A DNA stretch of 64,000 nucleotides from an uncultured Actinomycetes bacterium (GCA_947085535.1 CAMTWV010000002.1:94199-158198); one strand, 5' to 3'; shown: positions 13,661 to 63,924, counted from the first letter of the stretch. Translations and numbers: made by a program. The notes: generated from the letters alone by a model not told the origin.

Positions 13661-13670
13661 GGTAACTCCC

Positions 13671-42971: not shown

Positions 42972-45900
42972 ACTGCTTCACGCTCAGCGTTAAGTTTTTG
43001 TGAAATCAGTTTGGAAACACCATCAGCCTGCATGGTTGTGCCATAAATTGTGTCAGCCATTTCCATGGTTCGTTGCTGATGGGTGATGATTAGAAACTGA
43101 GTTTTGTCCTTTAACCTTAATAAAAGATTAATGAAGCGCTGAAGATTAGCTTCATCCAGAGACGCTTCAACTTCATCAAGGATGTAAAATGGGCTAGGCC
43201 TTGTAAAGTATAGGGCAAACAAGAAAGCTAAAGCAGCGAGTGCGGTTTCGCCCCCTGACAAAAGAGAAAGTTTCTGAAGTTTTTTCCCTTGCGGCTGAAT
43301 CTGTATCTCAATTCCTGACTCAAGAAGATTATCTTCTTTTTCTAAAACAATCTCAGCTTTTCCACCGGGAAATAAATAAGAAAAAACGGATTGGAAATTC
43401 TTATTAACTTCAACAAGAGTTTGGGCAAATTTTTCTTTTATTTTTTCATCTATTGCTCTGGTGACTTTTTCTAAAGCTTTTTTGCTATGCGATAAGTCAT
43501 TTATTTGTTCGTTCAAGAATTCATAACGCTCATCAAGCTCTTTAAATTCCTCAAGCGCCATGGGATTAACAGGACCCAGACTGCTTATTTTGCGCTTAAT
43601 TTCGCCAATTTTAGTCTGGCACTCAGAGTAAGAAATTTTTAGAGGATAATTTTCAAGTGCTTTCTCGAGCGGCGTATCGTATTCATCGACAATTTTTTCA
43701 ACAGCTGAGGTGATTTGTCCTTCCAACTGCACCCGACTTAATTCTTTTAAGCGTAAATCTTCTTGAAGTGTCTCTTTTTTTGCCTCGCATCCCTCTTTTT
43801 CTTCTTTAAGTTTTTTGAAAGCCCGCCTGATTTCTTCAAAGAATGTTTCATCCCCTGAAGCAATATCAGTCAGTTTCGCCGCCCACCAGTTTCCTTTTTC
43901 GTATAGGGCGGTAAAGAGCTCATAAGTGGGTTGTATGCGACCGACTAAAACTTCAAGCGCTTGAGAAATTTTGTGTTCGGATTCAGTTAAACTTTCAATT
44001 TCTCTTAAATCCTGATTTAATTTTTCTTTTTGCTGGTTTAGATGATTTTTTTGATTGACCAGCGATTTTAAATTAACTTCATTTTCCATTATTTTATGGC
44101 TGAGAGTAAGTTCTTCTTTATGGTTTGCATTTAATTCAACTTTGAAAACCTGGAGAGCTTCCTTTGCTTCATCTATTTTTGCTACAATATTTTTACTTTC
44201 TTTTGAGAAATTTTCTTTTGTGGTTTTGTCAATCTTTATTTCTTCACCAAGTTTATTTGACTCATTTTCAGCTTTTACTAAGTTATCTTTAAGCTTAATT
44301 AAGTCAGCCTCAAAATTGTGTATAGTCACTTTAAGAATTTCAATTTGAGAAGACTCATTGTTTAGCTTTTGTTGATATGAAGCTAAATTTTCTTTTGTTT
44401 GAGCGAGCCTTTCTTTATCTTTTTTAATTTCTGCCTCTAAAGTTGAAATCCCATGAGTTAATTTATTTTTTTCATCTTCAAGTGCTGTAAGCTCTCTTTT
44501 TCTATTTAAGATTTCCGAGGAATTGTTGCCAGCGATATTCCCGTAGCTTATTTTAAATGGGCAAAACACTTTGCCATTAGTTGTAACAAAAGTTAAATCA
44601 GAGCTTGTTTTATCGCTTAAACAACTGTCTTCGTTGATCAAATAAATATCTCTGGTTAGATACTCAATCGCCGATTTAAATTTTTCGTTTATTTCAATAA
44701 CGTCGCTTAATTTTTGTCCATTTGATTTGTGAGTATCAGGCATAGGAAGATTATTTATTGGAAGAAAAGAGATACCGCCCTGAATCGAGTTTCTTCGAAT
44801 AAGCCCAAGAGCATTTAAAGCCGTTTCTTTTGTGTCGCAAAGCACTGTGAATAAGTCAGGACCTAAAGCTGCCTCCAAAGCTTGTTCAAATTTAGGGGAA
44901 ATTTTAATTAAATCAATAAGGCAACCTGCTATGCCTTGAGGTTTGTTTTCTTTTTTTAATAACCAAGCTACTGCCTCAGGATAACCGGTTAAGTTGTTGT
45001 TCATGCCTTGAAGAGCATTGCTTTTTGATTTGCATTCAGCTGATTTTATTTTTAAGTCAGATAACTTCACCAGATGATTGTCTAATTTAAGTTGAACCTT
45101 ATTTAGTTCCTCTTCTAATTGTTTTATTTCTTTCCGGGAGTTTTTAATGTTACCCTCAAACCCTTCTCTTTCTTTGCTTTTAGCTTCAATTAACTTATTT
45201 AGCTCACTTATTTTTGTGAGATTAGAATTTCTTTCCGAGTCGATGAGTTTTAATTTTTCTTCGTTAAGGGTAATTTTTCTGTCAATATCAGATAACTTGT
45301 GCTGAATTTCAGAAAGATAAGCAGTGTTTTTATTAAGCGTCTCTTCCAAATTTTCAATCGTTTCTTCCAGATTAGAGCTTTTCTTAGTTTGATTTTCTTG
45401 AGAATTTTTAAGTTCATTTAAAGTATTTTCAATATGGCTTATTTCTTCCTCTGTTTTTTTCTTTCTATCATTTGTTTCTGTTATCTCTTTGTTCTTTTGG
45501 GTCTTTTGTTTTTCAAGCCGGTAAATTTCCTGCCGAATCTCGCTCATTTTTTCAATTAAGTGTTTACCTTTTTCCTCTAAAAGCAACATACTGCTATGAA
45601 GTCTTTCCTGAATAGCAGCAAGATGTCTTCTTTGTTCACTTAAATTTCCGGTAAAAAGTCTTTTCTCCTCTAAAGAGATCTGAAACTCTTCAATTTGGGT
45701 TTCTTTTTGTTTAAATTCATTTTTAAAAGTTTCAAAGCTTTCTTTTAACTGCTTTTCCTCTAAATTAAGCTTTTCCCATCTCTTTTGCATCTCTTTTAAT
45801 TCGAAAATTGTCTGACTTAGCTCTAACGTTTTTAACTCGTCGGTCAGCTTCTGGTATTCTTGAGCTTTTTCCGCCTGAGATTTTATGGGTCTAAGTTGAC

Positions 45901-46501
45901 GATGTACTTCTTGAGAAATATCTCGAATTCTTGATAGAGTTTGCTCCATTGACTCCAATTTTTTAATTGCCTTTTCTTTCCTTTTCTTATACTTCAATAC
46001 ATGAGCAACTTCCTCAATTAGAAGCCTTTTTTCTTCTGGCTTACTGGTTAAAATTTCTTCTAATTTCCCCTGACTGATAACAGAGTGGCACTCCCTTCCC
46101 ATTGCGGAGTCAGATAATAATTCCTGGATATCAAACAGTCGGCAAGGGGAATTATTTATGAAGTACTCTGAATCACCTGAGCGAAACAGACGGCGGCTAA
46201 TTGTTACCTCAGAAAATTCCAGGGGTATACTTTTATCTGAATTATCCATACAAAGAGTAATCTCGGCTAAGCCTAATGCTGGACGAGCGCTACTACCAGC
46301 AAAAATTACATCTTCCATAGCAGTGCCTCTAAGCGAGCGTGGACTTTGCTCTCCCAGCACCCAGAGGACTGCATCAGAAATATTACTTTTGCCGCTGCCG
46401 TTTGGACCTGCAATTACAGTTATTCCTGGTTTAAACTTTAAAATTGTTTTATCAGCAAAGGATTTAAATCCTTTGAGCGTTAAAGATTTAAGATACATCA
46501 A
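42968..46501 (-). CDS. smc: chromosome segregation protein SMC
   Basis: Walker A GPNGSGKSN, long coiled coils, hinge, C-terminal LSGGE signature and Walker B. 1177 aa. Confidence 0.95.
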   Translation of the reverse strand: MMYLKSLTLKGFKSFADKTILKFKPGITVIAGPNGSGKSNISDAVLWVLGEQSPRSLRGTAMEDVIFAGSSARPALGLAEITLCMDNSDKSIPLEFSEVTISRRLFRSGDSEYFINNSPCRLFDIQELLSDSAMGRECHSVISQGKLEEILTSKPEEKRLLIEEVAHVLKYKKRKEKAIKKLESMEQTLSRIRDISQEVHRQLRPIKSQAEKAQEYQKLTDELKTLELSQTIFELKEMQKRWEKLNLEEKQLKESFETFKNEFKQKETQIEEFQISLEEKRLFTGNLSEQRRHLAAIQERLHSSMLLLEEKGKHLIEKMSEIRQEIYRLEKQKTQKNKEITETNDRKKKTEEEISHIENTLNELKNSQENQTKKSSNLEETIENLEETLNKNTAYLSEIQHKLSDIDRKITLNEEKLKLIDSERNSNLTKISELNKLIEAKSKEREGFEGNIKNSRKEIKQLEEELNKVQLKLDNHLVKLSDLKIKSAECKSKSNALQGMNNNLTGYPEAVAWLLKKENKPQGIAGCLIDLIKISPKFEQALEAALGPDLFTVLCDTKETALNALGLIRRNSIQGGISFLPINNLPMPDTHKSNGQKLSDVIEINEKFKSAIEYLTRDIYLINEDSCLSDKTSSDLTFVTTNGKVFCPFKISYGNIAGNNSSEILNRKRELTALEDEKNKLTHGISTLEAEIKKDKERLAQTKENLASYQQKLNNESSQIEILKVTIHNFEADLIKLKDNLVKAENESNKLGEEIKIDKTTKENFSKESKNIVAKIDEAKEALQVFKVELNANHKEELTLSHKIMENEVNLKSLVNQKNHLNQQKEKLNQDLREIESLTESEHKISQALEVLVGRIQPTYELFTALYEKGNWWAAKLTDIASGDETFFEEIRRAFKKLKEEKEGCEAKKETLQEDLRLKELSRVQLEGQITSAVEKIVDEYDTPLEKALENYPLKISYSECQTKIGEIKRKISSLGPVNPMALEEFKELDERYEFLNEQINDLSHSKKALEKVTRAIDEKIKEKFAQTLVEVNKNFQSVFSYLFPGGKAEIVLEKEDNLLESGIEIQIQPQGKKLQKLSLLSGGETALAALAFLFALYFTRPSPFYILDEVEASLDEANLQRFINLLLRLKDKTQFLIITHQQRTMEMADTIYGTTMQADGVSKLISQKLNAEREAV

Positions 46502-46523: not shown

Positions 46524-47237
46524 TTATTTAATTATTTTTAAAGCTTTTAAGACTTCTTTAGCAGCTAACTGTTCAGCCTTCTTTTTACTGCCTGCTTTTC
46601 CCTGTTTTTTTATTTTCGAACCTATGTTTACCTCGACATGGTAAAGTCTATTATGTGGCGGACCTAATTCTGAAATAACTTTATATTCAGGCATAAGCTT
46701 AAATCTTTGAACAGCTTCTTCTTGCAGGGTTGTTTTAAAATCAAAAAACTTATTTTCGCTTGAAAGTTTTTCAATAACTTCGCCAAAGAGTTTTGTTAGA
46801 AACTTCTCCGCTTTCCTTAAACCCTGGTCGAGAAAGATAGCGCCAATAATAGCTTCAAAACAACCACTTAATATTGAAATATTTTCTTTAACCCCAGCGA
46901 GCTCAACACCCTTTCCGGTTTGCACAAAATTTTCCAGATTTAACTTTAGAGCTAATTCGTACAATGTCTCCGAGTTGACTGCTGCTGCTCGCAGTTTGGA
47001 CAGTTCACCCTCATTATAACTGGGGAATCTCGTGTAGATAAACTTGGTTATAGCAAAGTTAAGTACAGAATCCCCTAAAAACTCAAGTCTTTCATAGTTG
47101 TTAATTTTATCTTTAGACTCGAAAACAAACGAACGGTGTGTCAAAGCATTAGATAGAAGAGTTTTATCTTTAAATGAAACATTCAGAGCTTTTTCGGCTT
47201 GCTTAAGCAATTCAATTGAGATCATTTTTTTAATCAA
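46524..47237 (-). CDS. rnc: ribonuclease III
   Basis: ERLEFLGDSVL signature and C-terminal dsRBD. Confidence 0.9.
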   Translation of the reverse strand: MIKKMISIELLKQAEKALNVSFKDKTLLSNALTHRSFVFESKDKINNYERLEFLGDSVLNFAITKFIYTRFPSYNEGELSKLRAAAVNSETLYELALKLNLENFVQTGKGVELAGVKENISILSGCFEAIIGAIFLDQGLRKAEKFLTKLFGEVIEKLSSENKFFDFKTTLQEEAVQRFKLMPEYKVISELGPPHNRLYHVEVNIGSKIKKQGKAGSKKKAEQLAAKEVLKALKIIK

Positions 47238-48468
47238 GTTGGCGAATGATTATTGCTGCGTTATGACCACCAAAACCAAAAGAGTTAGACATCGCGCACT
47301 TAATCTCTTTCTTAACTGCTTTGTTTGGCACATAATTGAGATCACACAAGGGGTCGGGATATTCAAGATTTATTGTGGGTGGAACAATCCCATTTTTAAT
47401 TACCAGCGCGCAGGCTATCAATTCAAAAGCACCTGCCGCACCCAGAGCATGGCCAGTCATTGATTTAGTCGAGCTTACTAAAAGCTTATAAGCGTGGTCT
47501 CCAAATATATTTTTGATAGCCATTGTTTCAAACTCGTCATTGTATTGCGTGGAAGTTCCATGAGCATTTATATAATCGATATCTTCAGCTATAAGTCCTA
47601 CTTCATCAAGAGCCTGTTGTATAGCACGAGCAGCACCTTCGCCATCCGGAGAAGGTGAGGTTATGTGATAAGCATCGCCCGTTGCCCCGTAACCAACAAT
47701 TTCACCATAGATATGAGCGTCACGAGAAAGTGCGCTTTCTAAAGTTTCCAAAATTAAAATCCCTGCGCCCTCAGCAATAACAAAACCATCACGCTTGGTA
47801 TCAAAAGGACGACTGGCTTTTTGAGGCTCATCATTTCGAGTTGAGAGTGCTCTTGCCGCACAAAAACCAGCTACTCCTAACGGGGTAACCCCGGCCTCTG
47901 TACCACCTGTAATGCAGATATCAATGGCACCTCGTTTAATGGCTTCAAAAGCTTCCCCGATTGCATGGGTGCCGGAAGCACAAGCAGTGACTGTACAAAG
48001 ATTGATACCCTTTGCGCCCGTAGATATTGAGACATAACCGGCAGCCAAATCGCAAATCATCATGGGTACAAGGAAGGGGCTGACACGCTTAACTCCCTTT
48101 TCGAGTAAGATTTTGTGCTGGGCTTCGAGGGTACCCAGTCCACCGATACCCGAGCCAATAATAACACCTGTCTCATTGGCAATTTCGGGTGTTATTTTTA
48201 ATTTTGCGTCTTCTAAAGCTAATTGGGCGGCTGCCACGGCAAAATGACAGAAGCGGTCCATTCTTCTAATCTCGCGTTCGTCAATGAAGTTTTTAGGCTC
48301 AAAGTCTCTAACCTCACCGGCAATTTGGGATGGATATTCAGAAGCATCAAACAAGGAAATCTTATCAATTCCAGATTTTCCTTCTACCAAAGATTGCCAG
48401 TAAGTATCTTTTCCGATGCCAATTGGGGTAATTGGACCAATGCCTGTAACGACTACTCTTCGATTCAA
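47230..48468 (-). CDS. fabF: 3-oxoacyl-ACP synthase II
   Basis: Active-site Cys in TACASG, His-His in HGTST / GHxxGAAG. 412 aa. Confidence 0.9.
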   Translation of the reverse strand: MNRRVVVTGIGPITPIGIGKDTYWQSLVEGKSGIDKISLFDASEYPSQIAGEVRDFEPKNFIDEREIRRMDRFCHFAVAAAQLALEDAKLKITPEIANETGVIIGSGIGGLGTLEAQHKILLEKGVKRVSPFLVPMMICDLAAGYVSISTGAKGINLCTVTACASGTHAIGEAFEAIKRGAIDICITGGTEAGVTPLGVAGFCAARALSTRNDEPQKASRPFDTKRDGFVIAEGAGILILETLESALSRDAHIYGEIVGYGATGDAYHITSPSPDGEGAARAIQQALDEVGLIAEDIDYINAHGTSTQYNDEFETMAIKNIFGDHAYKLLVSSTKSMTGHALGAAGAFELIACALVIKNGIVPPTINLEYPDPLCDLNYVPNKAVKKEIKCAMSNSFGFGGHNAAIIIRQLD

Positions 48469-49445
48469 TTTCTACCCATCCTTGAAGCCGCTTCATTAAA
48501 CTCGTTAATTAAATTCGCCATTATTTCCTTAACAGAAAGAACTTCTTTAATCTCAGACACTCTTTCGCCAATGGTAAAGAGACCTTTTATTACGTCTCCT
48601 TGCTGGGCTTTTTCGAGAGCCTCGATTATGCAGTAGTTTTTCTTGCAATCCTGCAAACATTGGCGGCATCTGACAAGGGTATCTTTGCCAGGAATAGGAA
48701 CTTTCCCTTCCCTTAAGTTTTTAACAAATGTGCTTACGACTGCCCTAAAAGGCATTCCGACAGGACTTTCAATTATCGTAACATTTTCTTTTTCTGCTTC
48801 TAAACAAATCTTTTTCCATTCATCGGCGCCGCTTGCTTCTTTACTTAAAGAAAATCTTGTCCCCATCTGTACACCCTTAGCACCCAAACTTAGTGCTTTG
48901 GCTATGTCGAATCCGCCAATTATTCCGCCTGCAGCAATTAACGGTAACTTCACGCTATTTATAATCTCAGGCAATATGGAAAAGAGTGTTTTGTCTGTGC
49001 CAAGATGTCCGCCTGCCTCAAAACCTTCAATTATAATAGCGGGTGGATCAAATTTTTCTGCCAATTTAGCTGCTTTCAATGACGAAACAACAGGTAAAAA
49101 TGGTATGTTTGCTTCGCGACAACGTTTAAAGGCTTCGCGCGAAAACCCGGCGCCTGAAACCACCAAATCGACTTTTTCCCTGATTGAAGTCTCGAGAAGG
49201 TCGCTAAAGTTTTTTAGAGCCACCATGATATTCACGCCAATTATTCTGTCAGTTAACAAACGAGCCTCTCTGATATGTTTAGCAAGCTCATTGCTTTTTA
49301 ACCCTGAACCGGCTATTAACCCAATGCCTCCTTCATTAGCTACAGCAGCAGCAAGTGGTGCTAACGAAATTCTAACCGCCATACCTCCTTGTATAACTGG
49401 AAGTGGCGCTTCTAAATTTCCAATTTTTAAAGTAGGAAGTTTCAC
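48465..49445 (-). CDS. fabK: NMO-family flavoprotein, enoyl-ACP reductase II (FabK-like) with an extra Cys cluster (possible Fe-S; FabX-like alternative)
   Basis: IQGGMA and FMN/TIM-barrel NMO motifs. C-terminal insertion VRCRQCLQDCKKNYC (C-x2-C-x3-C-x4-C). Confidence 0.65.
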   Translation of the reverse strand: MKLPTLKIGNLEAPLPVIQGGMAVRISLAPLAAAVANEGGIGLIAGSGLKSNELAKHIREARLLTDRIIGVNIMVALKNFSDLLETSIREKVDLVVSGAGFSREAFKRCREANIPFLPVVSSLKAAKLAEKFDPPAIIIEGFEAGGHLGTDKTLFSILPEIINSVKLPLIAAGGIIGGFDIAKALSLGAKGVQMGTRFSLSKEASGADEWKKICLEAEKENVTIIESPVGMPFRAVVSTFVKNLREGKVPIPGKDTLVRCRQCLQDCKKNYCIIEALEKAQQGDVIKGLFTIGERVSEIKEVLSVKEIMANLINEFNEAASRMGRN

Positions 49446-49462: not shown

Positions 49463-49699
49463 CTATTGTTTTTTGCTTTCGATGTAATTAACAGCATCGC
49501 CAACGGTGACAATCTTTTCAGCATCTTCGTCAGAAATTTCGATGCCAAATGATTCCTCGAGAGCCATTACAAGCTCAACAATATCGAGCGAATCAGCACC
49601 AAGGTCGTCAACAAAGGCTGTTTTTTCAGTGACTTCACTTACCTCCACACTTAGTTGGTCAGCAATTATATCCTTTACTTTTTCAAAAATAGCCGACAT
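49463..49699 (-). CDS. acpP: acyl carrier protein
   Basis: [17 protein letters not shown] phosphopantetheine Ser site. 78 aa. Confidence 0.95.
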
Positions 49700-49757: not shown

Positions 49758-50504
49758 TTAGGTAACCATTCCACCATCAATCTGAATGACCTGGCCTGTG
49801 ATATAGCCCGATTCATCAGAGGCAAGAAAAGCAACTAAATTTGCCACATCTTCGGGTTGACCAAATCTGCCAAGCGGAATTTGTTTATTTATAGCACTTC
49901 TTGTGTCCTCGGAAAGCTTTTGAGTCATTTCTGTTTCAATAAAACCAGGAGCTACAGCGTTAGCCCTGACTCCTCTTGAAGCCATTTCTCGAGCGATTGT
50001 CTTGGTTAAACCAATAACCCCGGCTTTTGAAGCCGAGTAATTTGCTTGGCCAGGGTTTCCAGTGATTCCAACAACAGAAGCTATGTTAATAATATTCCCG
50101 CTTCGCTGTTTCATCATATATTTACTCACTGCCTGACTGCAATTAAAGGTGCCTTTAAGATTAACAGTTAAAACAGCATCCCAATCTTCTTCTTTCATCC
50201 GAACAAGAAGATTGTCGCGAGTAATCCCGGCATTGTTAACGAGAATATCAATTTTACCAAACTTTTCAATTATGCTCTCGATAAGTGAATTTGCTTCATC
50301 GAGTTTCGCGACATTTGCTTTTATAAAAACAGCTTCGCTTCCCATCTTTTTTATTTGTTCGACCAGTTCTTGAGCTAACTCTTCATTTCTTATAGCATTT
50401 ACAACTATGTTTGCGCCTAACTCGGCTAATTTTAAGCAAATTGCTTTGCCAATTCCGCGAGCGCCTCCTGTAACGAGAACCACTCTACCAGTAAGTTCAG
50501 GCAT
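49758..50504 (-). CDS. fabG: 3-oxoacyl-ACP reductase
   Basis: TGGARGIG, NNAG, catalytic S...YSASK. 248 aa. Confidence 0.9.
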   Translation of the reverse strand: MPELTGRVVLVTGGARGIGKAICLKLAELGANIVVNAIRNEELAQELVEQIKKMGSEAVFIKANVAKLDEANSLIESIIEKFGKIDILVNNAGITRDNLLVRMKEEDWDAVLTVNLKGTFNCSQAVSKYMMKQRSGNIINIASVVGITGNPGQANYSASKAGVIGLTKTIAREMASRGVRANAVAPGFIETEMTQKLSEDTRSAINKQIPLGRFGQPEDVANLVAFLASDESGYITGQVIQIDGGMVT

Positions 50505-50506
50505 TT

Positions 50507-51460
50507 TTAATACTCCTTTCTTAAAAAATCAATCGTTTTTTGAAGCGATTCGCTATCTTCAACATTTAAAATTGTACAATCAGTAGAAATTCTTTTCACT
50601 AAACCTGAAAGAATTTTACCGGGTCCTACTTCAATAAAGATATTAGCCATTTTAAGCATCTTGTTTACTGATTGCTGCCACTTAACAGAACCTGTAATTT
50701 GTTTTCTAAGAGTCTCTTTGATTGTCTCTGGCTCTACAGAAACCTCTGCCGTGTAGTTTGAGATAACAGGAATCCTTGCTTTCTTAAATAATGCCTTATC
50801 TAAAAATTCACCAAATTCGTTCTCAGCTTTTTTCATTAGTGGAGAATGAAAACCTCCACTAACTGCTAATTTTACTACACGTTTTGCTCCTGCTTCATTA
50901 AAAAATTTAATCGATTCGTTTATAACTTTTGATTCGCCTGACACAATTATCTGACCAGGAGAATTGTAATTAGCTATGGTGATAACACCCTCGTCTTTTA
51001 AAGACGCGGTAACTTTTTCAACTTTTTCTTCTTCGAGCCCTAAAACAGCAATCATTTCACCGTATTTTCCAGAAGTCGAGCTTGTTGCAGCTTTTTGCAT
51101 TAATTCTGCTCGCTTCATAACTAATTTTAAGCCATCATTGAAATTAAAGGCATCAGCCACAGCTAAAGCTGTGTATTCGCCAAGACTATGTCCTGCCATA
51201 ACCTCAGGAATTATACCTTCTTTAGCAAGAAGCATCCAGGCAGCAAAGCTAACTAAAAAAATGGCAGGCTGGGCATTTATAGTTTCAGTTAGTTTTTCAA
51301 TCGGTCCATTAAAGCATAACTCTTTTAAATCAAAGTTTAAAATTTCATTTGCCTGCAAAAACAAATCTTTAATCTCAGGATAATTTTTATATAAATCTAA
51401 TCCCATTCCCACATATTGTGAGCCCTGACCTGGAAATACTAAAGCAATTCCTTTTTTCAA
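50507..51460 (-). CDS. fabD: malonyl-CoA:ACP transacylase
   Basis: FPGQGSQ and GHSLGE motifs. Confidence 0.9.
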   Translation of the reverse strand: MKKGIALVFPGQGSQYVGMGLDLYKNYPEIKDLFLQANEILNFDLKELCFNGPIEKLTETINAQPAIFLVSFAAWMLLAKEGIIPEVMAGHSLGEYTALAVADAFNFNDGLKLVMKRAELMQKAATSSTSGKYGEMIAVLGLEEEKVEKVTASLKDEGVITIANYNSPGQIIVSGESKVINESIKFFNEAGAKRVVKLAVSGGFHSPLMKKAENEFGEFLDKALFKKARIPVISNYTAEVSVEPETIKETLRKQITGSVKWQQSVNKMLKMANIFIEVGPGKILSGLVKRISTDCTILNVEDSESLQKTIDFLRKEY

Positions 51461-52645
51461 CTAAGAACACCTTGTCTCTTTAAGTTTAGAAATTAAAACA
51501 GGGACGACCTCAAATAAATCGCCCACTATCCCATAATTGGCTACACTAAAGATAGGAGCATCTGGGTCTTTATTAATAGCCACAATTGTCTCTGATGTTT
51601 GCATGCCAGCTAAATGCTGAATTGCACCCGATATACCACAGGCGATGTATAATTTAGGACAAACTGTCTTTCCTGTTTGTCCAACTTGATGAGAGTAAGG
51701 TATCCACTCGGCGTCAACAGCTGCTCTTGAAGCACCAACTGCAGCGTTCAAAAGAGAGGCAAATTCCTTGATTAGTTTAAAATTATCAGCTTTCCCTAAA
51801 CCTCGACCGCCAGAAACGATAACATCTGCTTCCTCAAGTTTTACTTTCTCGGTTAAATCTTCGACAAAATTAAGGACATTTATTTTTGAAGAAAGATTTT
51901 TTGGTTCGAATTTAATAATTTCACCTTGCCGCGAACTTGAAAAGTCAAGCTTTTTCATTACACGAGGCCGAACAGTTGCCATTTGCGGTCTTTTATTAGG
52001 ACAAACAATTGTAGCCATGATGTTTCCACCGAAAGCCGGTCGGGTTTGAAGAAGTAATCTGTTTTTTAAATCAATTTCAAGTCCAGTGCAATCAGCAGTT
52101 AAACCTGTTTTTAAGATAGCAGCAATCTTGGGAGCAATTGATCTTCCAACAACTGTTGCTCCAAAAAGCACAGTCTCTGGCTTATATTGATTAATTAAAT
52201 CAACCATGACTTGTGCGTAGGCATCGTCAAGGTGATCTTTTAATAAGTCATCCTCAACAAGAAAAACCTTATCAGCTCCATGACCAATTAATTTGTCCGT
52301 TCCATCTTTTATGTTTTTCCCTAAAAGAACCGCTGCGAGATAAGTTCCTAACGAATCGGCTAACTTCCTTCCTTCCCCTAAAAGCTCATAAACAACAGAA
52401 GCAATATTTTTGTTTCTTTGCTCGGTAAAAACCCAAATTCCATTATACCCAGAGGTATCCTCAATTTTTCTTTTGTCTTCAATAACAATGGCATTAGACT
52501 TGCAAACCTCCACACAAGCTCCGCACAAGTTGCAATTTGCTTCAATAATTGCTTTTTTTTCAAATACTTTAATGGCTTGATAGGGACAGCTTTTTACACA
52601 GAGTTTGCAGCCATTACATTTTTCAAGAATTACCTTGATTGACAT
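51461..52645 (-). CDS. etfA: electron-transfer flavoprotein alpha subunit with N-terminal 2x[4Fe-4S] ferredoxin domain (CarE-type EtfA)
   Basis: CNGCKLCVKSCP and CNLCGACVEVC ferredoxin motifs, then EtfA FAD-binding domain. 1-nt gap to etfB, 0-nt gap to fabD. Confidence 0.85.
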   Translation of the reverse strand: MSIKVILEKCNGCKLCVKSCPYQAIKVFEKKAIIEANCNLCGACVEVCKSNAIVIEDKRKIEDTSGYNGIWVFTEQRNKNIASVVYELLGEGRKLADSLGTYLAAVLLGKNIKDGTDKLIGHGADKVFLVEDDLLKDHLDDAYAQVMVDLINQYKPETVLFGATVVGRSIAPKIAAILKTGLTADCTGLEIDLKNRLLLQTRPAFGGNIMATIVCPNKRPQMATVRPRVMKKLDFSSSRQGEIIKFEPKNLSSKINVLNFVEDLTEKVKLEEADVIVSGGRGLGKADNFKLIKEFASLLNAAVGASRAAVDAEWIPYSHQVGQTGKTVCPKLYIACGISGAIQHLAGMQTSETIVAINKDPDAPIFSVANYGIVGDLFEVVPVLISKLKETRCS

Positions 52646-52646
52646 T

Positions 52647-53432
52647 TTAAATTAACCTACCTTGTTTTAATTTATCAATTAAAGTGTCGACCTGAGTTTC
52701 TAAGTTACCTTGAAGCATTCCACCTTTTTGGTGTCTTTCAGGAGTAAAAATTTTAATCACCTGAGTGGGTGAACCGGCTAAACCAACTTTATCTTTTTTA
52801 GCGTCTATATCTTGATGGTTCCAAATGGTAACTTGGGCACTTTTTGCCTTCATCATTCCCTTGAGCGAAGGAAGACGGGGCTCATTTATTTCCTTAACTA
52901 CAGTAATTAGACCTGGAAGAGGCATTCCAATAACTTCATAACCTTCTTCAACCATTCTTTCAACCACAATCTTATTTTCATTAATTTCTTCAACTTTTTT
53001 AACAAAAGTGACATAGGGAATGGAAAGAAAATGAGCAAGCTCGGGACCAACTTGGCCAGTGTCACCATCCATAGTTTGTTTACCACAAATTATAAGGTCA
53101 AATGAACCGATTTTTTCGATGGTTTTAGAGAGAGTATATGAAGTTGCCAGAGTATCGGCACCCGCAAACGCTCTATCGCTCAAAAGTATGGCTTCATCTG
53201 CTCCTACTGTAAGAGCATCACGTAAAACTTGCTCGGCTTGAGGAGGTCCCATAGTAATTACGGTAACTTTCCCACCCACACGCTCTTTTAATCTAACTCC
53301 CTCTTCAAGAGCGTATGTGTCAAAAGGATTGATGATACTATCGACTCCCTGTCTTATGAGAGTATTTGTGTTAGGGTCAATTTTTACTTCGGTTGTTCCA
53401 GGAACTTGCTTAATGCAAACAATAATTTCCAT
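52647..53432 (-). CDS. etfB: electron-transfer flavoprotein beta subunit
   Basis: MEIIVCIKQVPGTTEVKIDPNTNTLIRQGV typical EtfB start. 261 aa. Confidence 0.85.
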   Translation of the reverse strand: MEIIVCIKQVPGTTEVKIDPNTNTLIRQGVDSIINPFDTYALEEGVRLKERVGGKVTVITMGPPQAEQVLRDALTVGADEAILLSDRAFAGADTLATSYTLSKTIEKIGSFDLIICGKQTMDGDTGQVGPELAHFLSIPYVTFVKKVEEINENKIVVERMVEEGYEVIGMPLPGLITVVKEINEPRLPSLKGMMKAKSAQVTIWNHQDIDAKKDKVGLAGSPTQVIKIFTPERHQKGGMLQGNLETQVDTLIDKLKQGRLI

Positions 53433-53450
53433 TTTGACTTCCTTTGGTCA

Positions 53451-54611
53451 CTAATTTGCTGTCAGAGTGCTTTCTTTAATTAGCTGAAGCGCAATAACAT
53501 TTCTTTGAATTTGATTAGTGCCTTCATATATCTGAATAATTTTTGCATCCCGCATCATTTTTTCGACAGGATATTCTCGCATGTAACCATATCCACCAAA
53601 AATCTGAACAGCATCAACTGTTATTTTCATAGCCACATCGGAAGCAAAAACTTTTGCCATAGCCGAAATTTTAGAGACATCTTTTGCCCCTGCATCTATG
53701 GATTTTGCCACTTGGTAAACCAAAGCCCTCGCAGCTTCAATTTCTGTAGCCATATCAGCTAACATATGCTGAATAGCCTGAAAAGAAGAAATTGATTGGC
53801 CAAACTGCACTCGCTGACGGGAGTAATTCAAAGTAGCTTCGAGAGCACCCGCAGCTAATCCCACAGCTTGAGCACCTATGCCAGGACGCGTCACATCCAG
53901 TGTTTTCATAGCAACAATAAAGCCAAGTCCTTCTTTCCCGATTAAGTTTTCGGCCGGTATTTTACAATTTTCAAAAATAAGTTCTCTTGTGGCTGAAGCT
54001 CTGATACCAAGTTTTTTTTCTTTCTTGCCAAAAGAAAACCCAGGGATTCCTTTTTCAACAATAAAAGCACTCGCTCCACGAGCACCTTTGCTTTTGTCTG
54101 TTAAAGCAATAATTGTGTATATTTCGGCTTCTCCGCCATTAGTTATCCATTGCTTTGTTCCATTCAATATATAGTAATCGCCTTCGCGAACTGCGTTTGT
54201 TTGGATGCCACCAGCGTCGCTTCCTGCGTTTGCTTCCGTTAAACCAAATGCTGCTAATTTTGTTCCCTTAGCAACGTCAGGTAAGTACTTCTTTTTTTGC
54301 TCGTCAGAACCAAAAAGAAGAATGGGATAAGCTCCTAACGCGCTTGCCGCATAACTCACCGAAACACCGCAACAACCTCGGCTCAATTCTTCCATGACTA
54401 AACAATTCTCAAAACAGCCCATCCCGAAACCTCCATATTCTTCCGGGACGTATAAGCCAAATAAATCTGACTCGGCTAAAATTTTAAGTATTTCCCAGGG
54501 AAACTCTTCTTTCTCGTCGAGTTCGGCTCGCGCTGGGATTATTTTTTCTTCAGTAATTCTTCTTGCTAAATCCTTAATCATTCTTTGCTCATCAGTTAAG
54601 AAATAATCCAT
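53451..54611 (-). CDS. acyl-CoA dehydrogenase family flavoprotein (butyryl-CoA dehydrogenase-like; CarC-type), embedded in the fab operon
   Basis: ACAD N-, middle- and C-terminal domains. Catalytic Glu in YEGTNQIQR. 15-nt gap after fabH and 18-nt gap before etfB. Confidence 0.85.
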   Translation of the reverse strand: MDYFLTDEQRMIKDLARRITEEKIIPARAELDEKEEFPWEILKILAESDLFGLYVPEEYGGFGMGCFENCLVMEELSRGCCGVSVSYAASALGAYPILLFGSDEQKKKYLPDVAKGTKLAAFGLTEANAGSDAGGIQTNAVREGDYYILNGTKQWITNGGEAEIYTIIALTDKSKGARGASAFIVEKGIPGFSFGKKEKKLGIRASATRELIFENCKIPAENLIGKEGLGFIVAMKTLDVTRPGIGAQAVGLAAGALEATLNYSRQRVQFGQSISSFQAIQHMLADMATEIEAARALVYQVAKSIDAGAKDVSKISAMAKVFASDVAMKITVDAVQIFGGYGYMREYPVEKMMRDAKIIQIYEGTNQIQRNVIALQLIKESTLTAN

Positions 54612-54626
54612 ACCTTTGACCCCTCT

Positions 54627-55646
54627 CTATTTAAAATTTTTATGCCATCTAATAACATTGGCTCCCCAAGTTAAACCTCCTCCAAATCCAACGGAAAGAA
54701 CAATATTGCCTTTTATTAGTTTTCCGGCTGCCCAGAGCTCGTAAAGAGCTATTGGGATGGAGGCCGAGGAAGTATTTCCATACTTATTAATATTACTGAC
54801 AACTTTTGAAGAGTCTATTTTTAATCTTTCGACTGCGACATCAATAATTCTCTGATTTGCCTGATGCGGGATTAAAAAATCAATATCTCCAACTTTCAAA
54901 TTTGCTTTTTTAAGTGCTATTTTAGCTGCACGAGGAAGCACTTTGACGGCAAATTTAAAAATTTCATTTCCGCTCATATGGATGTAATGTAAATTATTTT
55001 TAACTGTTTCACTGCTGGTTGGGAGCATTGCGCCACCAGCAGGGATTTTTAAAAGGTCGCCTCGAGTGCCATCTGCTGATAAGTAATTTGATAAAATACC
55101 GTAACCTGGCTCCACTTCTTGCAAAACAACTGCTCCAGCCCCATCGCCAAAAAGCACACAGGTATTTTTATCTTTCCAATTGACAAAACGAGTAATGGCT
55201 TCAGCGCCGATTAGAAGAACTGTTTTATAAGTGCCGGTGGCAACAAAGCTTGAAGCCACGGCTAAACCATAACTAAAACCTGTGCATGCAGCCTGTAAAT
55301 CAAAAGCAGGACAACCTTTGATACCCATTTTTTGCTGGGCAACACAAGCAGTTGAAGGAAAAATCATGTCAGGCGAACCAGTGGCAACAATAATCAACTC
55401 AACATCTTTAGGACTTACATTTGCATCTTCTAATGCTTTTAAACCAGCTTCAGCAGCTAAATCCGAAGTAGACAAATCATCGGCTATGATGTGTCTTTCT
55501 GATATCCCTGTTCGACTGCGTATCCACTCATCACTGGTTTCAACCATTTTTTCTAAATCATGGTTATTAAGTATTCTTTCCGGAATTGATACACCAATTC
55601 CTGTAATACCAACCGGAATTAAAATTAGATTTTTCATTTGCAACAT
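54627..55646 (-). CDS. fabH: 3-oxoacyl-ACP synthase III
   Basis: Active-site AACTGF, HQAN, NxGNTSSAS motifs. Confidence 0.9.
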   Translation of the reverse strand: MLQMKNLILIPVGITGIGVSIPERILNNHDLEKMVETSDEWIRSRTGISERHIIADDLSTSDLAAEAGLKALEDANVSPKDVELIIVATGSPDMIFPSTACVAQQKMGIKGCPAFDLQAACTGFSYGLAVASSFVATGTYKTVLLIGAEAITRFVNWKDKNTCVLFGDGAGAVVLQEVEPGYGILSNYLSADGTRGDLLKIPAGGAMLPTSSETVKNNLHYIHMSGNEIFKFAVKVLPRAAKIALKKANLKVGDIDFLIPHQANQRIIDVAVERLKIDSSKVVSNINKYGNTSSASIPIALYELWAAGKLIKGNIVLSVGFGGGLTWGANVIRWHKNFK

Positions 55647-55648
55647 CC

Positions 55649-56656
55649 TTAAGAACTTTTTAGAGATTCCTTAATTTCACCGATTAGGTTTTCCTGGATA
55701 GTTTTAGCGGCTACTTTTATGGCATTCTTTATTGCTTTGCTGCTTGAGCTTCCGTGACTGATGATGCAAACTCCGTCTACACCGAGAAGTTGTGCTCCGC
55801 CATACTCTTCATAATCGAGTTGTTTGATTAATTTTTTAAGTCCAGGTTTTAAAAGTAAAGCGCCGATTTTAGAAATCAATGACCCTTCAGCGGTTAATCT
55901 TATTTGCTTAAAAATGGTGCTGGCTAATCCTTCCATTAGCTTTAAAACAACATTTCCTGTAAAACCGTCACAAACACATATGTCAACTTTACCTTTAGGA
56001 ATATCGTTGCCTTCCACATTGCCAAAAAAGTTTAATTGTGATGCGGTGAGAAGTTTATGAGCAGCAACAGTAATTTCATTTCCTTTGCTTTTTTCTTCTC
56101 CAATACTTAAGAGTCCAACAGTCGGATTTTCAATGTTAAGAATTTTTTTAGCAAAAAGACTACCCATCTGGGCAAATCGTACTAAGTGTTCGGGTTTACA
56201 GTCAGCTGTAGCTCCAACATCTAAAATCACCACTGGTTTATAGGGTGTAGGAACAACAATGGCAATAGCCGGCCGCGAAATTCCTTTTATACGCCCATAA
56301 GTAAGCAAAGCTGCGCTGACCACAGCTCCTGTGTTTCCTGCAGAGAGAAAAGCGTGTACCTTACCTTCTTTTACCAATCTGGTACCGACAACAATAGATG
56401 AGTTGCTTTTTGAACGGACAGACCACGCTGCTTCTTCGCCCATTTCGATAACATCAGATGCTGTCTGAACTTCAAGATTTGGTAGTTTACTAAAGCGGTT
56501 TAGCTCTGCCTGAATAGCCGATAGTTCTCCAACTAAAATTACTTTTAAATTTTTTAACTCTAAAGCTGCCCTATGTGCACCTTTTACAATTTCGTGAGGC
56601 GCATGGTCGCCTCCCATAGCGTCTACAGCAATTATTAAATTATTTTCCTCTGGCAT
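55649..56656 (-). CDS. plsX: phosphate acyltransferase PlsX
   Basis: IAVDAMGGDHAP start. 335 aa. Confidence 0.9.
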   Translation of the reverse strand: MPEENNLIIAVDAMGGDHAPHEIVKGAHRAALELKNLKVILVGELSAIQAELNRFSKLPNLEVQTASDVIEMGEEAAWSVRSKSNSSIVVGTRLVKEGKVHAFLSAGNTGAVVSAALLTYGRIKGISRPAIAIVVPTPYKPVVILDVGATADCKPEHLVRFAQMGSLFAKKILNIENPTVGLLSIGEEKSKGNEITVAAHKLLTASQLNFFGNVEGNDIPKGKVDICVCDGFTGNVVLKLMEGLASTIFKQIRLTAEGSLISKIGALLLKPGLKKLIKQLDYEEYGGAQLLGVDGVCIISHGSSSSKAIKNAIKVAAKTIQENLIGEIKESLKSS

Positions 56657-56674: not shown

Positions 56675-56851
56675 TTATTCAACCTCGATTACCTTTTTAC
56701 CATCATAATAACCGCAATTTGGACAAATATGATGTGGTAATTTTGACTGGTGACATTGAGGACAATTTGAAAGAGTAGGCTCGGTAGCACGCCAGTTTGC
56801 TCTTCGCTTATCTCTTCTTGCTTTAGATGTTTTTCTTTTTGGTACAGCCAT
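56675..56851 (-). CDS. rpmF: 50S ribosomal protein L32
   Basis: MAVPKRKTSKARRDKRR and CPNCG zinc ribbon. The track ORF starts at a TTG six codons upstream. Confidence 0.9.
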   Translation of the reverse strand: MAVPKRKTSKARRDKRRANWRATEPTLSNCPQCHQSKLPHHICPNCGYYDGKKVIEVE

Positions 56852-57014
56852 TACAAGCACTCCTTCCAACGGAATCTTTTCTAATAATAGAAATCTCTTT
56901 TTCTTCTTTTTGGGGGGATTTTAAGTCTAATTTAGTTTTAATTTTTAATTCTGCTCCAACGCTTTCTAAAGTTTGTGCAACGTTTATTTTGTATTGACTC
57001 ACCGCTTTACCTTC

Positions 57015-57045
57015 GGAATATTGAGAAAAAATTATACCACAGTTT
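57015..57045 (-). promoter_or_regulatory. Candidate extended -10 promoter (TGGTATAAT on minus strand, plus 57021-57029) for the rpmF-plsX-fab operon with an untranslated leader of about 170 nt
   Basis: Minus strand ...GTGGATTATGTTTGAAACTGTGGTATAAT... The -35 is poor, the extended -10 is perfect. Confidence 0.4.
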
Positions 57046-57161
57046 CAAACATAATCCACTTTTTATAAAGACAAAAATTCCTGCGACACAATTTAGCACA
57101 GGAAAATTATTCAAAAAGTCACTATCTTTTTAGAAATTAAAGAATGATAAATTAGAAGAAA

Positions 57162-57620
57162 CTACCCTCGTTGTTCCATTTTTCCTTGTAGTCTATCTCT
57201 ACCACGCTGAACAGCTGCTAAAAGTTTTCCTAAATTGACTTCAAGGTTGGCTAACATCTCGTCAGCATAATCTTCAGCACCTAAACGAATTTCTCTTTCA
57301 TGTGCTCTTGCTTTATCTAATATTTCAGCTGCCTGCTGTTCTGCAAGTTTAACAACTTCAGTTTCAGAAGCTAAAGCTTTTGCTTGTTCTCTTGTATCTT
57401 CAAGAATCCGATTAGCTTCTTTTTCCGCCTCTTCAAGCATTTCCTGTCTTTCTTTGACTATCCATCGAGCTTGTTTGAGTTCATCCGGCAAGGTTGCCCG
57501 CAATTCGTCAATAATTTCGTAAATTTTCTGCTCGTTTATAATAACCGATGAAGTAAGGGGCATTTTTTTGCTTCTTGCTACCACGTCTTCTAATTTATCA
57601 ATTACTGTCATTATATCCAT
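57162..57620 (-). CDS. coiled-coil protein resembling ATP-synthase b / H-subunit-like proteins. Function unknown
   Basis: 152 aa, almost entirely alpha-helical heptads (EEAEKEANRILEDTREQAKALASE...). Lies between coaD and rpmF. Confidence 0.5.
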   Translation of the reverse strand: MDIMTVIDKLEDVVARSKKMPLTSSVIINEQKIYEIIDELRATLPDELKQARWIVKERQEMLEEAEKEANRILEDTREQAKALASETEVVKLAEQQAAEILDKARAHEREIRLGAEDYADEMLANLEVNLGKLLAAVQRGRDRLQGKMEQRG

Positions 57621-61082: not shown

Positions 61083-61940
61083 TTACCCCTCCTCGTAGAA
61101 AAAGAGAGCTACGGCACCTGGACCGATATAAGTTCCAATTACGCTTCCTATTTGAGCTTCAAGAAGAGAAACATGCTCAATATTTTCTTTTTTAATTTCC
61201 TTTATAAGTAAGTCAGCTACTTTTTTATCATCAGAATAAGCCACGCCTAAACGGAGGGGCTTTTCCCCACTGATACTTTCTTTAAGAGAACTAATTAGCT
61301 CAGGCATGATTCGTGCGGTTCCCCTGATCTTTTTATAAGGTGCGACAACACCGTCATCAAGGGTTAAAACAGGTTTTATGCTAAGCAAAGAACCTACAAG
61401 AGCTTGTGCTTTACCAATTCTCCCACCCAGATGAAGGTACTTTAATGTGTCAAGAACGAAGAAAATTTTAACTTTCTCACTTAAAGAATTGGCTAAATTA
61501 GCCAGGTCATTAAAAGATTTTCCTTCGTTTCTTGCCCTTACAAGAGCATCAACAATCATTCCGAGGGCAGCAGATGCTTGTTTTGAATCGATAATTTCGA
61601 TGGCTGCTCCTTTTATCATTTCTTTAGCCGCAGTGGCTGAACCAATGGTACCGCTTAATTTTTCAGAGATATGCACTGATATAATCTGAGAGCACCCTTC
61701 TTCAACAAGTTTTTTGTAAGCGCTCATAAATTCCATAGTGGTTGGTTGAGAAGTTTTGGGTAAAACCTCAGATGTTTTTAATCTCTGGTAGAAATCTTCA
61801 GGATTCATTTCTGTCCAGTCACGATAGATTTCTTCCTCTCCAAACCGAACGGTTAAGGGAACTATTATCACCTCGTTTTCTTTGTAATATGAAAGCGGTA
61901 AGTCGGCAGTACTATCTGTTACAATAGCAATTTTTTCCAT
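61083..61940 (-). CDS. DegV-family fatty-acid-binding protein (FakB)
   Basis: MEKIAIVTDSTADLP start. 285 aa. Directly downstream of the DAK2-domain gene. Confidence 0.85.
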   Translation of the reverse strand: MEKIAIVTDSTADLPLSYYKENEVIIVPLTVRFGEEEIYRDWTEMNPEDFYQRLKTSEVLPKTSQPTTMEFMSAYKKLVEEGCSQIISVHISEKLSGTIGSATAAKEMIKGAAIEIIDSKQASAALGMIVDALVRARNEGKSFNDLANLANSLSEKVKIFFVLDTLKYLHLGGRIGKAQALVGSLLSIKPVLTLDDGVVAPYKKIRGTARIMPELISSLKESISGEKPLRLGVAYSDDKKVADLLIKEIKKENIEHVSLLEAQIGSVIGTYIGPGAVALFFYEEG

Positions 61941-61951
61941 TCTTATCCTCC

Positions 61952-63556: not shown

Positions 63557-63570
63557 GATTCTCCCTTAAA

Positions 63571-63924
63571 TTACTCCTTAGTTCTTATGCCTTGAACATG
63601 GACATCGACGCTAACTACATTAACCTGCGCCAGTCTTTCAAGCTCATACTTAATTTTAGTTATTAAATTATGCGCAACTTCAGCAACATTTATTCCGTGC
63701 TCAACAACAACATACAAATCAACTTCAATTCCTTCATCAACCGGGGTTACCTTTATACCCTTTTTTAATTTATCACGGCTGAGTAGCGAAGCTACCCCAG
63801 ATTTTAAATTTGGATTAGCCATACCAACCACGCCATAACATTCGAGAACAGTATAACCTGCTATCTCAGCTAAAGCATTATTGGAAATTTGAATTTGTCC
63901 AAGATTTGGCAGATAGTTACTCAT
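63571..63924 (-). CDS. Asp23/Gls24 family (alkaline shock protein-like)
   Basis: 117 aa. Conserved position upstream of fakA. Confidence 0.8.
   Translation of the reverse strand: MSNYLPNLGQIQISNNALAEIAGYTVLECYGVVGMANPNLKSGVASLLSRDKLKKGIKVTPVDEGIEVDLYVVVEHGINVAEVAHNLITKIKYELERLAQVNVVSVDVHVQGIRTKE

Follow-up and report, generated by a model that had tools for sequence, protein, structure and literature searches.

Introduction

In bacteria, it is the enoyl-acyl carrier protein (ACP) reductase (ENR) that draws every round of fatty-acid synthesis through to its end. The enzyme is an important target of antibiotics, and its known classes are FabI, FabL, FabV and FabK. FabK is a single TIM-barrel FMN/NAD(P)H protein with no ferredoxin link. 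Reduction of enoyl thioesters is also carried out by complexes of an acyl-CoA dehydrogenase (ACAD) with the two subunits, EtfB and EtfA, of an electron-transfer flavoprotein (ETF). The closest described examples are the butyryl-CoA dehydrogenase (Bcd) complexes Bcd-EtfAB of C. difficile (5OL2) and A. fermentans (4L1F/4KPU), which reduce the trans-2-enoyl thioester crotonyl-CoA with NADH and are encoded with crt/hbd/thl, the caffeyl-CoA reductase CarCDE of Acetobacterium woodii (6FAH), and the acryloyl-CoA reductase AcrABC of Clostridium propionicum (NF042972/NF042971/NF042970), an ETF-dependent enoyl-CoA reductase. FkbI, MbtN, RedW/PigA and 4IRN provide precedent for the ACAD fold accepting phosphopantetheine-tethered substrates on ACP or peptidyl carrier protein (PCP); these enzymes are oxidative and act in secondary metabolism. 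Here we describe a three-gene module, ACAD-etfB-etfA, lying at positions 51461 to 54611 of a 64,000-nucleotide stretch of DNA from an uncultured Actinomycetes bacterium (GCA_947085535.1, CAMTWV010000002.1:94199-158198), which we refer to as the window and whose positions are counted from its first letter.

The module shares with Bcd-EtfAB the ACAD fold, the catalytic glutamate and an Etf pair of the bifurcating type, but its ACAD falls in a separate clade, its EtfA carries an extra ferredoxin domain, it is encoded with fab genes, and its presumed substrates are C4-C18 acyl-ACP. With CarCDE it has in common the order ACAD-EtfB-EtfA, an N-terminal 2x[4Fe-4S] domain on EtfA and an EtfB whose nearest relative is CarD; unlike CarCDE, it has as neighbors fabH and fabD, with no CoA-transferase/ligase or caffeate-activating partners at the window. 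AcrC, AcrB and AcrA are the best NCBIfam matches of the three proteins, although all fall below their cut-offs (461 (460.7) bits against 640, 241 (240.7) against 475 and 383 (382.5) against 600, respectively) and the Acr genes have another genomic context. The ACADs that act on carrier proteins are distant from that of the window. The module has the same operon slot as FabK in sister lineages and the same proposed reaction, yet the two are unrelated in fold and cofactors, the module being predicted to form a three-subunit complex with three FAD and two [4Fe-4S] clusters.

On balance, we favor the view that ACAD-EtfB-EtfA is a trans-2-enoyl-ACP reductase of type II fatty-acid synthesis (FAS), linked to NADH and ferredoxin, that stands in the place of FabK. 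ACP as the carrier, the reductive direction and the reduction of ferredoxin are each proposed by analogy. The machinery would be of a known kind, that of the Bcd/Car-type bifurcating complexes, and it is the recruitment of such machinery into type II FAS that would be new; our full-text literature searches found no description of an ENR of the ACAD/ETF type, and the papers they brought up, on D. alaskensis lipid isotopes, the Caldithrix genome and archaeal FAS, proved unrelated.

Results

The module stands where sister lineages encode FabK

The main ground for reading ACAD-EtfBA as an ENR is its exchange with FabK. In Desulfitobacterium, Coriobacteriaceae and Anaerolineae the genes are arranged as plsX-fabH-X-fabD-fabG-acpP-NMO-fabF-rnc-smc, where NMO denotes a protein of the nitronate monooxygenase family and X is a second member of that family. 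X is a genuine FabK: against TIGR03151 (cut-off 453.1) two of these proteins reach 539 and 493 bits, and the one from Coriobacteriaceae (L088) shares 67% identity with the FabK of Anaerolineae. In the same operons the NMO protein encoded after acpP scores only 203-218 bits, like its counterpart in the window (195.6 bits). Within the probable class of the window, too, FabK is encoded between fabH and fabD, in Candidatus (Ca.) Aquicultorales (L170) at 488 bits and on one more actinobacterial contig (L172) at 495 bits, so that genuine FabK is found in this slot in L087, L089, L170 and L172 (488-539 bits), in L088, and in 11 metagenome loci. In Ca. Oleimmundimicrobium (L171, order Subteraquimicrobiales) the slot is instead filled by ACAD-EtfB-EtfA with its ferredoxin domain, the rest of the operon being collinear from yceD-rpmF to smc-ftsY-ffh, and in a metagenome-assembled genome (MAG) of Margulisiibacteriota (L053) ACAD-etfB-etfA also occupies the FabK slot of a collinear operon. 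A genuine FabK and an ACAD of this clade occur together in none of the approximately 175 loci examined. Judged by gene order, ACAD-etfBA has displaced the enoyl-ACP reductase FabK in place, as a non-orthologous substitute.

Two of the operons with FabK (L088, 801-3972; L170, 671-3829) contain two further genes between rpmF and plsX that are not in the window. One encodes an ADP-forming acyl-CoA synthetase-like protein of ~698 residues (CoA_binding/Succ_CoA_lig/ATP-grasp_5) and the other a DRTGG/AAA_26 protein.

Linkage to fatty-acid genes extends over many phyla

In a scan for relatives with one genome per species, the best 80 of 595 ACAD relatives (70-77% identical to the ACAD of the window) were taken and their loci were searched with the window's own proteins. 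The 80 MAGs carry the labels Nitrospirota/Thermodesulfovibrionia, Thermodesulfobacteriota, Omnitrophota, Margulisiibacteriota, Saganbacteria, Riflemargulisbacteria, Ratteibacteria, Rokuibacteriota, Bacillota and Actinomycetota. At 51 of the 80 loci the ACAD gene shares its strand with the rpmF-plsX-fabH-fabD-fabG-acpP-fabF cluster and lies within or next to it, at 31 of these 51 together with etfBA. It is found in three positions, namely between fabH/plsX and fabD/fabG, right after fabF/rnc, and before yceD-rpmF; in a Bacillota organism represented by more than 100 contigs it lies just upstream of yceD-fapR-plsX. The linkage is conserved over at least eight phyla, and its persistence through several independent rearrangements argues for functional coupling. 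A check on the conservation of fabH-acd-etfBA-fabD had been called for in a preliminary description of this DNA; the arrangement recurs in many genomes and is neither an oddity of one strain nor a chance juxtaposition.

Median identity to the proteins of the window is 73% for the ACAD, 64% for ACP, 59% for EtfB, 56% for FabG, FabF and EtfA, 50% for FabH and 41% for FabD, the top rank of the ACAD being biased upward because the loci were picked by ACAD similarity. Where the ACAD gene is unlinked, the annotated neighbors are housekeeping genes of unrelated function (PTPS, a PilZ protein, a SurA-like protein, DAHP synthase, argJ/argB and a corrinoid protein). Genes for crotonase, for 3-hydroxyacyl-CoA dehydrogenase and for thiolase are absent from all the annotated ACAD neighborhoods, linked or unlinked. 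No genuine FabK was matched within +/-8 kb of the 80 ACAD loci, and E. coli FabZ had no match in the 80 loci, which is uninformative for the rest of these genomes.

We note two variant arrangements. Loci of Syntrophorhabdaceae and related loci (L041, L042, L047, L049 and L061) have rpmF-plsX-ACAD-fabD-fabG-acpP-fabF, in which the ACAD takes the usual place of fabH, with no fabH and no etf genes close by. In L077 (9174-11007) the ACAD gene comes right after fabF with no adjacent Etf and is followed by genes for a radical-SAM/SPASM protein and a short-chain dehydrogenase/reductase (SDR) that is 33% identical to FabG.

The ACAD subunit belongs to a clade of its own

Glu363 of the ACAD aligns with the catalytic Glu376 of medium-chain acyl-CoA dehydrogenase (MCAD) and is invariant in 83 of 83 clade members, which bears out the preliminary assignment of the catalytic glutamate to the motif YEGTNQIQR. 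The best solved relative is the Bcd of C. difficile (5OL2_C, 421 bits, 55% identity), followed by 4L1F_A (419 bits), both Bcds being 54-55% identical to the ACAD of the window; CarC (6FAH) ranks only 19th, behind the Bcds, with 329 bits. The earlier label "CarCDE-type" thus suits the Etf subunits and the gene order, whereas the ACAD is nearer to Bcd than to CarC. Since these nearest characterized enzymes (Bcd 5OL2/4L1F and CarC 6FAH) reduce trans-2-enoyl thioesters, the chemistry fits an ENR. No NCBIfam equivalog reaches its cut-off for the ACAD, AcrC being the top one, and models of carrier-protein ACADs also stay under theirs (MbtN 79/700, RedW 278/650 and PigA 257/500 bits); the prolyl-ACP dehydrogenase 4IRN scores 219 bits. 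In the databases the protein is named only "acyl-CoA dehydrogenase family protein" or "butyryl-CoA dehydrogenase".

In a neighbor-joining tree 83 ACADs form a single clade on a long branch from two Bcds, with pairwise identities of 60-98% (median 70%) within the clade and of 47-59% to the Bcds. The tree tracks phyla, and members that are not linked to fab genes nest among linked ones; this nesting rules out that the unlinked Nitrospirota ACADs are a separate paralogue.

Some features of the clade bear on the substrate. The depth of the acyl pocket is set by a helix-E insertion and by the side chains at the positions of MCAD Gln95 and Glu99. The one-residue helix-E insertion of both butyryl-specific Bcds is missing from all 83 clade ACADs, which align with MCAD there without a gap, and the clade has Ser/Ala/Thr and Ala at the two MCAD positions. 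The missing insertion and these small residues would fit longer acyl chains, although we regard this as a weak hint. Eight positions are Lys or Arg in at least 80% of the clade and non-basic in both Bcds, and two residues, K236 and K314, flank the segments equivalent to MCAD 250-256 and 324-327 near the substrate entrance. It is possible that the conserved basic positions form an ACP-docking surface, for which they are only suggestive. The mapped pantetheine- and flavin-contact residues are conserved everywhere and are silent on the choice between CoA and ACP.

An alternative is that the module is an ordinary CoA-specific complex of the Bcd type that is accessory to the fab genes, for instance in providing FabH with primers such as butyryl-CoA or in handling exogenous fatty acids, and is not the ENR of elongation. 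We consider this unlikely. It would accord with the fact that the closest solved relatives are CoA enzymes, with the annotation "butyryl-CoA dehydrogenase" in the source databases, with the conservation of the mapped pantetheine- and nucleotide-region residues, and with a fatty-acid kinase pair (FakA/DegV) that the window encodes 6 kb upstream. However, the annotated contexts lack the crotonase, 3-hydroxyacyl-CoA dehydrogenase and thiolase that would be needed to furnish an enoyl-CoA, FabK is replaced position for position in collinear operons and never occurs together with the module, the ACAD is kept in some clusters that have no fabH (L041, L042, L047 and L049), and the helix-E insertion of the butyryl-specific Bcds is missing.

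As to the source of the DNA, ACADs 100% identical to that of the window were matched in metagenome contigs only. The nearest named relatives come from a Ca. Subteraquimicrobiales MAG (91%) and from other Actinomycetota MAGs, including Ca. Oleimmundimicrobium (77%), and not from Clostridia. Ca. Subteraquimicrobiales is an order of the class Ca. Aquicultoria, phylum Actinomycetota, and the window probably derives from a deep-branching anaerobic actinobacterium of this class, to judge from one protein and synteny.

The Etf subunits resemble those of bifurcating complexes

EtfA begins with two CxxCxxCxxxC motifs, CNGCKLCVKSCP and CNLCGACVEVCK, and has two Fer4 matches, in line with the N-terminal 2x[4Fe-4S] domain ascribed to it earlier. 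It aligns end to end, ferredoxin domain included, with CarE (6FAH_A, 446 bits). The best solved relative of EtfB is CarD (264 bits), followed by EtfB of A. fermentans, LctB, and EtfB of C. difficile and T. maritima. For each Etf subunit the top five solved relatives are all experimentally bifurcating (6FAH, 4KPU, 5OL2, 7QH2 and 7KOE; 236-446 bits), whereas the human and Paracoccus respiratory ETFs score 96-188 bits (human ETF beta 105 bits). The EtfB motif DGDTGQVG is found as DGDT[AG]QVG in 46 of 46 EtfBs adjoining clade ACADs, and the ferredoxin domain of EtfA is kept in 40 of 43 orthologues adjoining clade ACADs. The Etf pair thus appears to be of the bifurcating type, with two FAD and NADH binding, EtfB being the proposed site of NADH and of the second FAD.

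By analogy with Bcd-EtfAB and CarCDE, NADH would reduce the bifurcating FAD on EtfB, from which single electrons would pass to the FAD of EtfA and on to that of the ACAD. The ACAD would then give a hydride to C3 of the enoyl-ACP, with a proton delivered to C2 via Glu363, and the other, low-potential electron would reach ferredoxin by way of the two [4Fe-4S] clusters in the N-terminal domain of EtfA. The overall reaction would be 2 NADH + Fd(ox) + enoyl-ACP -> 2 NAD+ + Fd(red) + acyl-ACP, with the AcpP encoded in the same operon as the presumed carrier of the substrate, and each elongation cycle would return reduced ferredoxin to an energy-limited anaerobe.

It could also be that the complex is an ENR that does not bifurcate, with electrons running from NADH through Etf to the ACAD, or with reduced ferredoxin as the donor by way of the Fe-S domain of EtfA. 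That domain could work either way, three of the 43 EtfA orthologues do without it, and the best NCBIfam matches of all three subunits are to AcrC, AcrB and AcrA. Even so, the Acr scores are far under their cut-offs, both Etfs are most like those of complexes proven to bifurcate and the great majority of orthologues have the Fe-S domain of the CarE type, and we think an ENR of this kind quite improbable.

Organization of the operon

Every gene from 42.9 to 57 kb lies on the minus strand, and Pfam and NCBIfam searches give the transcription order rpmF-plsX-fabH-ACAD-EtfB-EtfA-fabD-fabG-acpP-NMO-fabF-rnc-smc (Table 1). The placement of acd-etfB-etfA between fabH and fabD with gaps of 15, 18, 1 and 0 nt, as first described, agrees with the coordinates, the sequence and the domain searches.

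Table 1. Genes and domains of the fatty-acid-synthesis operon in the window, in order of transcription
Feature	Position	Strand	Basis or remark
rpmF	56675-56869	-	directly before plsX
plsX, phosphate acyltransferase	55649-56656	-	TIGR00182 375 bits vs cut-off 243; first fab-cluster gene after rpmF
fabH, ketoacyl-ACP synthase III	54627-55646	-	TIGR00747 425 bits vs cut-off 292
ACAD-family flavoprotein, 386 aa	53451-54611	-	Pfam Acyl-CoA_dh_N/M/1, all three domains
EtfB, small ETF subunit	52647-53432	-	Pfam/NCBIfam; similarity to bifurcating Etfs
EtfA, large ETF subunit, 394 aa	51461-52645	-	Pfam ETF, ETF_alpha, Fer4 x2
EtfA N-terminal 2x[4Fe-4S] ferredoxin domain	52466-52645 (~residues 1-60)	-	Fer4 stretches in residues 4-59
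fabD, malonyl-CoA:ACP transacylase, TTG start	50507-51460	-	TIGR00128 337 bits vs cut-off 261
fabG, 3-oxoacyl-ACP reductase	49758-50504	-	TIGR01830 362 bits vs cut-off 298
acpP, acyl carrier protein	49463-49699	-	TIGR00517 112 bits vs cut-off 70
FabK/FabX-like NMO-family flavoprotein (Cys4-NMO)	48465-49445	-	TIGR03151 195.6 bits vs cut-off 453.1
fabF, ketoacyl-ACP synthase II	47230-48468	-	TIGR03150 640 bits vs cut-off 494
rnc	46524-47237	-	ORF coordinates
smc	42968-46501	-	ORF coordinates

The other gaps in the operon are 2 (plsX-fabH), 2, 58 and 17 nt, and there are two overlaps, both of fabF, of 4 nt with the NMO gene and of 8 nt with rnc. The TTG start of fabD abuts the stop codon of etfA, which, together with the overlaps of fabF with both its neighbors, suggests translational coupling along the operon. 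A scan for promoters and terminators found no enrichment over shuffled sequences and no intergenic sites within the operon, and the tight gaps, which leave a terminator no room, make it likely that ACAD-etfBA is co-transcribed with the fab genes. TTG is the apparent start of fabD, fabF, rnc and smc, the start codons being taken from open reading frame (ORF) calling alone. The three module genes have a GC content of 0.38-0.41 and a GC3 of 0.27-0.31, matched by the flanking fab genes; this native composition, the way in which the ACAD tree tracks phyla and the occurrence of the arrangement in another genus of the same order rule out a recent horizontal insertion. FabG is the only SDR found within the 64-kb window.

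Other parts of the window can be described briefly. In L086 and L171 rpmF is preceded by a yceD (DUF177) gene. None is evident in the window at 56870-57620 on the minus strand, where, upstream of rpmF, the gene caller gives only a 152-aa ORF without a Pfam match and a 44-codon ORF. Further upstream, at 61083-63924 on the minus strand, ahead of recG-rsmD-coaD and the fab operon, are genes for a protein of the Asp23 family, a kinase resembling FakA (with Dak2/FakA domains) and a fatty-acid-binding protein like DegV/FakB; the organism can thus probably also activate exogenous fatty acids. The sole sizeable plus-strand ORFs are at 12753-14960, one of them of 429 aa and with no NCBIfam match at E <= 1e-25, and the rest of the window consists of minus-strand housekeeping genes (ftsK, uppP, rnj, dapA, dapB, pnp, ribF and others).

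A second flavoprotein gene between acpP and fabF

The operon encodes a further flavoprotein, the NMO-family protein between acpP and fabF, which we call Cys4-NMO. As a whole, the protein matches FabK (7L00, 166 bits) better than FabX (126 bits), but the best match of its C-terminal 118 residues is the [4Fe-4S] subdomain of FabX (7E1Q, E 1.7e-8), with FabKs at 0.004-0.15. A CX2CX3CX4C motif is present in 120 of its 120 top homologues, and the four cysteines are invariant in an alignment of 28 sequences. In H. pylori FabX a [4Fe-4S] subdomain, with cluster cysteines C300/C304/C308/C320, stands in for FabK's NAD(P)H motif (PMC8626469), and Cys4-NMO probably binds an Fe-S cluster in the same place. 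The two proteins are alike in belonging to the NMO family and to type II FAS, FabX being an FMN protein, and in having four C-terminal cysteines; they differ in cysteine spacing (CX3CX3CX11C in FabX) and in that the acceptor of FabX is O2, which a strict anaerobe would not have. Genes of this large subfamily, which the databases label only "nitronate monooxygenase", are flanked by acpP and fabF in Actinomycetota, Bacillota, Chloroflexota and Margulisiibacteriota.

The gene had been labelled fabK. That it is a resident FabK is ruled out by its score of less than half the TIGR03151 cut-off, by the cysteine motif and by the 14 or more clusters in which a genuine FabK accompanies it; it is no canonical FabK and cannot simply be counted as the resident ENR. 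Nor does the opposite claim, that Cys4-NMO is certainly not an ENR, survive, since in some clusters it is the only NMO protein. A metagenome scan gave two types of cluster, one with FabK between fabH and fabD (11 loci) and one with nothing there (~10 loci). Loci with Cys4-NMO as the sole NMO-family protein and an empty fabH-fabD slot include L099, L100, L102, L103, L105, L108, L111 and L113-L115, several of them from the human gut, and in such clusters either Cys4-NMO acts as a (perhaps ferredoxin-dependent) ENR or the ENR is encoded elsewhere. Two roles are thus conceivable for Cys4-NMO, that of an ENR dependent on ferredoxin and that of an enzyme of unsaturated fatty-acid formation resembling FabX. 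Whatever its role, it is FabK's place, and not that of Cys4-NMO, that the ACAD module takes.

It might be supposed from these clusters with an empty slot, and from the Fe-S region that takes the place of FabK's NAD(P)H-binding part, that Cys4-NMO is the true ENR of the window and that ACAD-EtfBA does no more than feed low-potential electrons to it or else has some unrelated function. We consider this highly unlikely: 48 of the 51 fab-linked ACAD loci, and more besides, have no Cys4-NMO at all, the proposal leaves the ACAD subunit without a function, and where a genuine FabK stands alongside Cys4-NMO the latter is not simply the ENR.

The module could in principle be an acyl-ACP dehydrogenase that works oxidatively, with Etf as the acceptor, and feeds a trans-2/cis-3 isomerization for the anaerobic formation of unsaturated fatty acids. 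ACADs acting on carrier proteins exist, the models of prolyl-PCP dehydrogenase and MbtN match weakly, and FabX offers a precedent for backtracking dehydrogenation in type II FAS (PMC8626469). Several points make this reading very improbable: the displaced gene encodes a reductase, FabZ already makes enoyl-ACP in every cycle, the Etf is of the NADH-linked bifurcating and not the quinone-linked type, and the operon already has in Cys4-NMO a separate candidate for a FabX-like enzyme. Moreover, the reverse of the Bcd-Etf reaction is strongly endergonic unless there is a high-potential acceptor. The dehydrogenase step for unsaturated fatty acids that the preliminary description had offered as one possibility is accordingly disfavored, the exchange with FabK and the type of Etf both speaking for reduction.

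Discussion

We have described an ACAD-EtfB-EtfA module that lies within a fatty-acid-synthesis operon, in the slot that sister lineages give to FabK. The preliminary description had proposed an ETF-coupled ACAD as a component of type II FAS and, as one option, an alternative ENR; this part of the proposal gains strong support from the linkage to fab genes across phyla and from the slot shared with FabK.

A number of observations weigh against an ENR. The closest characterized ACAD relatives, at 55% identity, are CoA-specific, and the acryloyl-CoA reductase of C. propionicum, the best NCBIfam match, is a related ETF complex that is not known to bifurcate. The equivalents of MCAD Ser142, Asp253, Arg256 and Arg281 are kept both in the clade and in the Bcds and do not discriminate between CoA and ACP. 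The ACAD gene lies away from fab genes at 29 of the 80 loci, and no Etf adjoins it at 40. A known ENR such as FabI, FabL or FabV may be encoded elsewhere in these genomes, the search with E. coli FabI, which had no match, having covered +/-8 kb around the 80 loci. Lastly, the Cys4-NMO of the window might itself be the ENR, which would make the ACAD module redundant.

If ACAD-EtfB-EtfA nevertheless reduces enoyl-ACP, the finding may extend well beyond this organism. We tentatively suggest, as a possibility somewhat short of probable, that an ACAD with a bifurcating Etf constitutes a further class of ENR that replaces FabK/FabI in many phyla of strict anaerobes (Nitrospirota/Thermodesulfovibrionia, Thermodesulfobacteriota, Omnitrophota, Margulisiibacteriota, deep Actinomycetota and some Bacillota), each elongation cycle yielding reduced ferredoxin. 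This would be a fifth solution to enoyl-ACP reduction, with an unrelated fold and widespread in uncultured, energy-starved anaerobes, and it would explain "missing fabI" gaps in metabolic reconstructions. Low-potential electrons, in the form of reduced ferredoxin, would be recovered from lipid synthesis, up to ~7 per palmitate, which would matter for growth near thermodynamic limits. Electron bifurcation would in this way be extended from catabolism to anabolism, and the module would be the first case in which a core biosynthetic pathway is coupled to flavin-based electron bifurcation.

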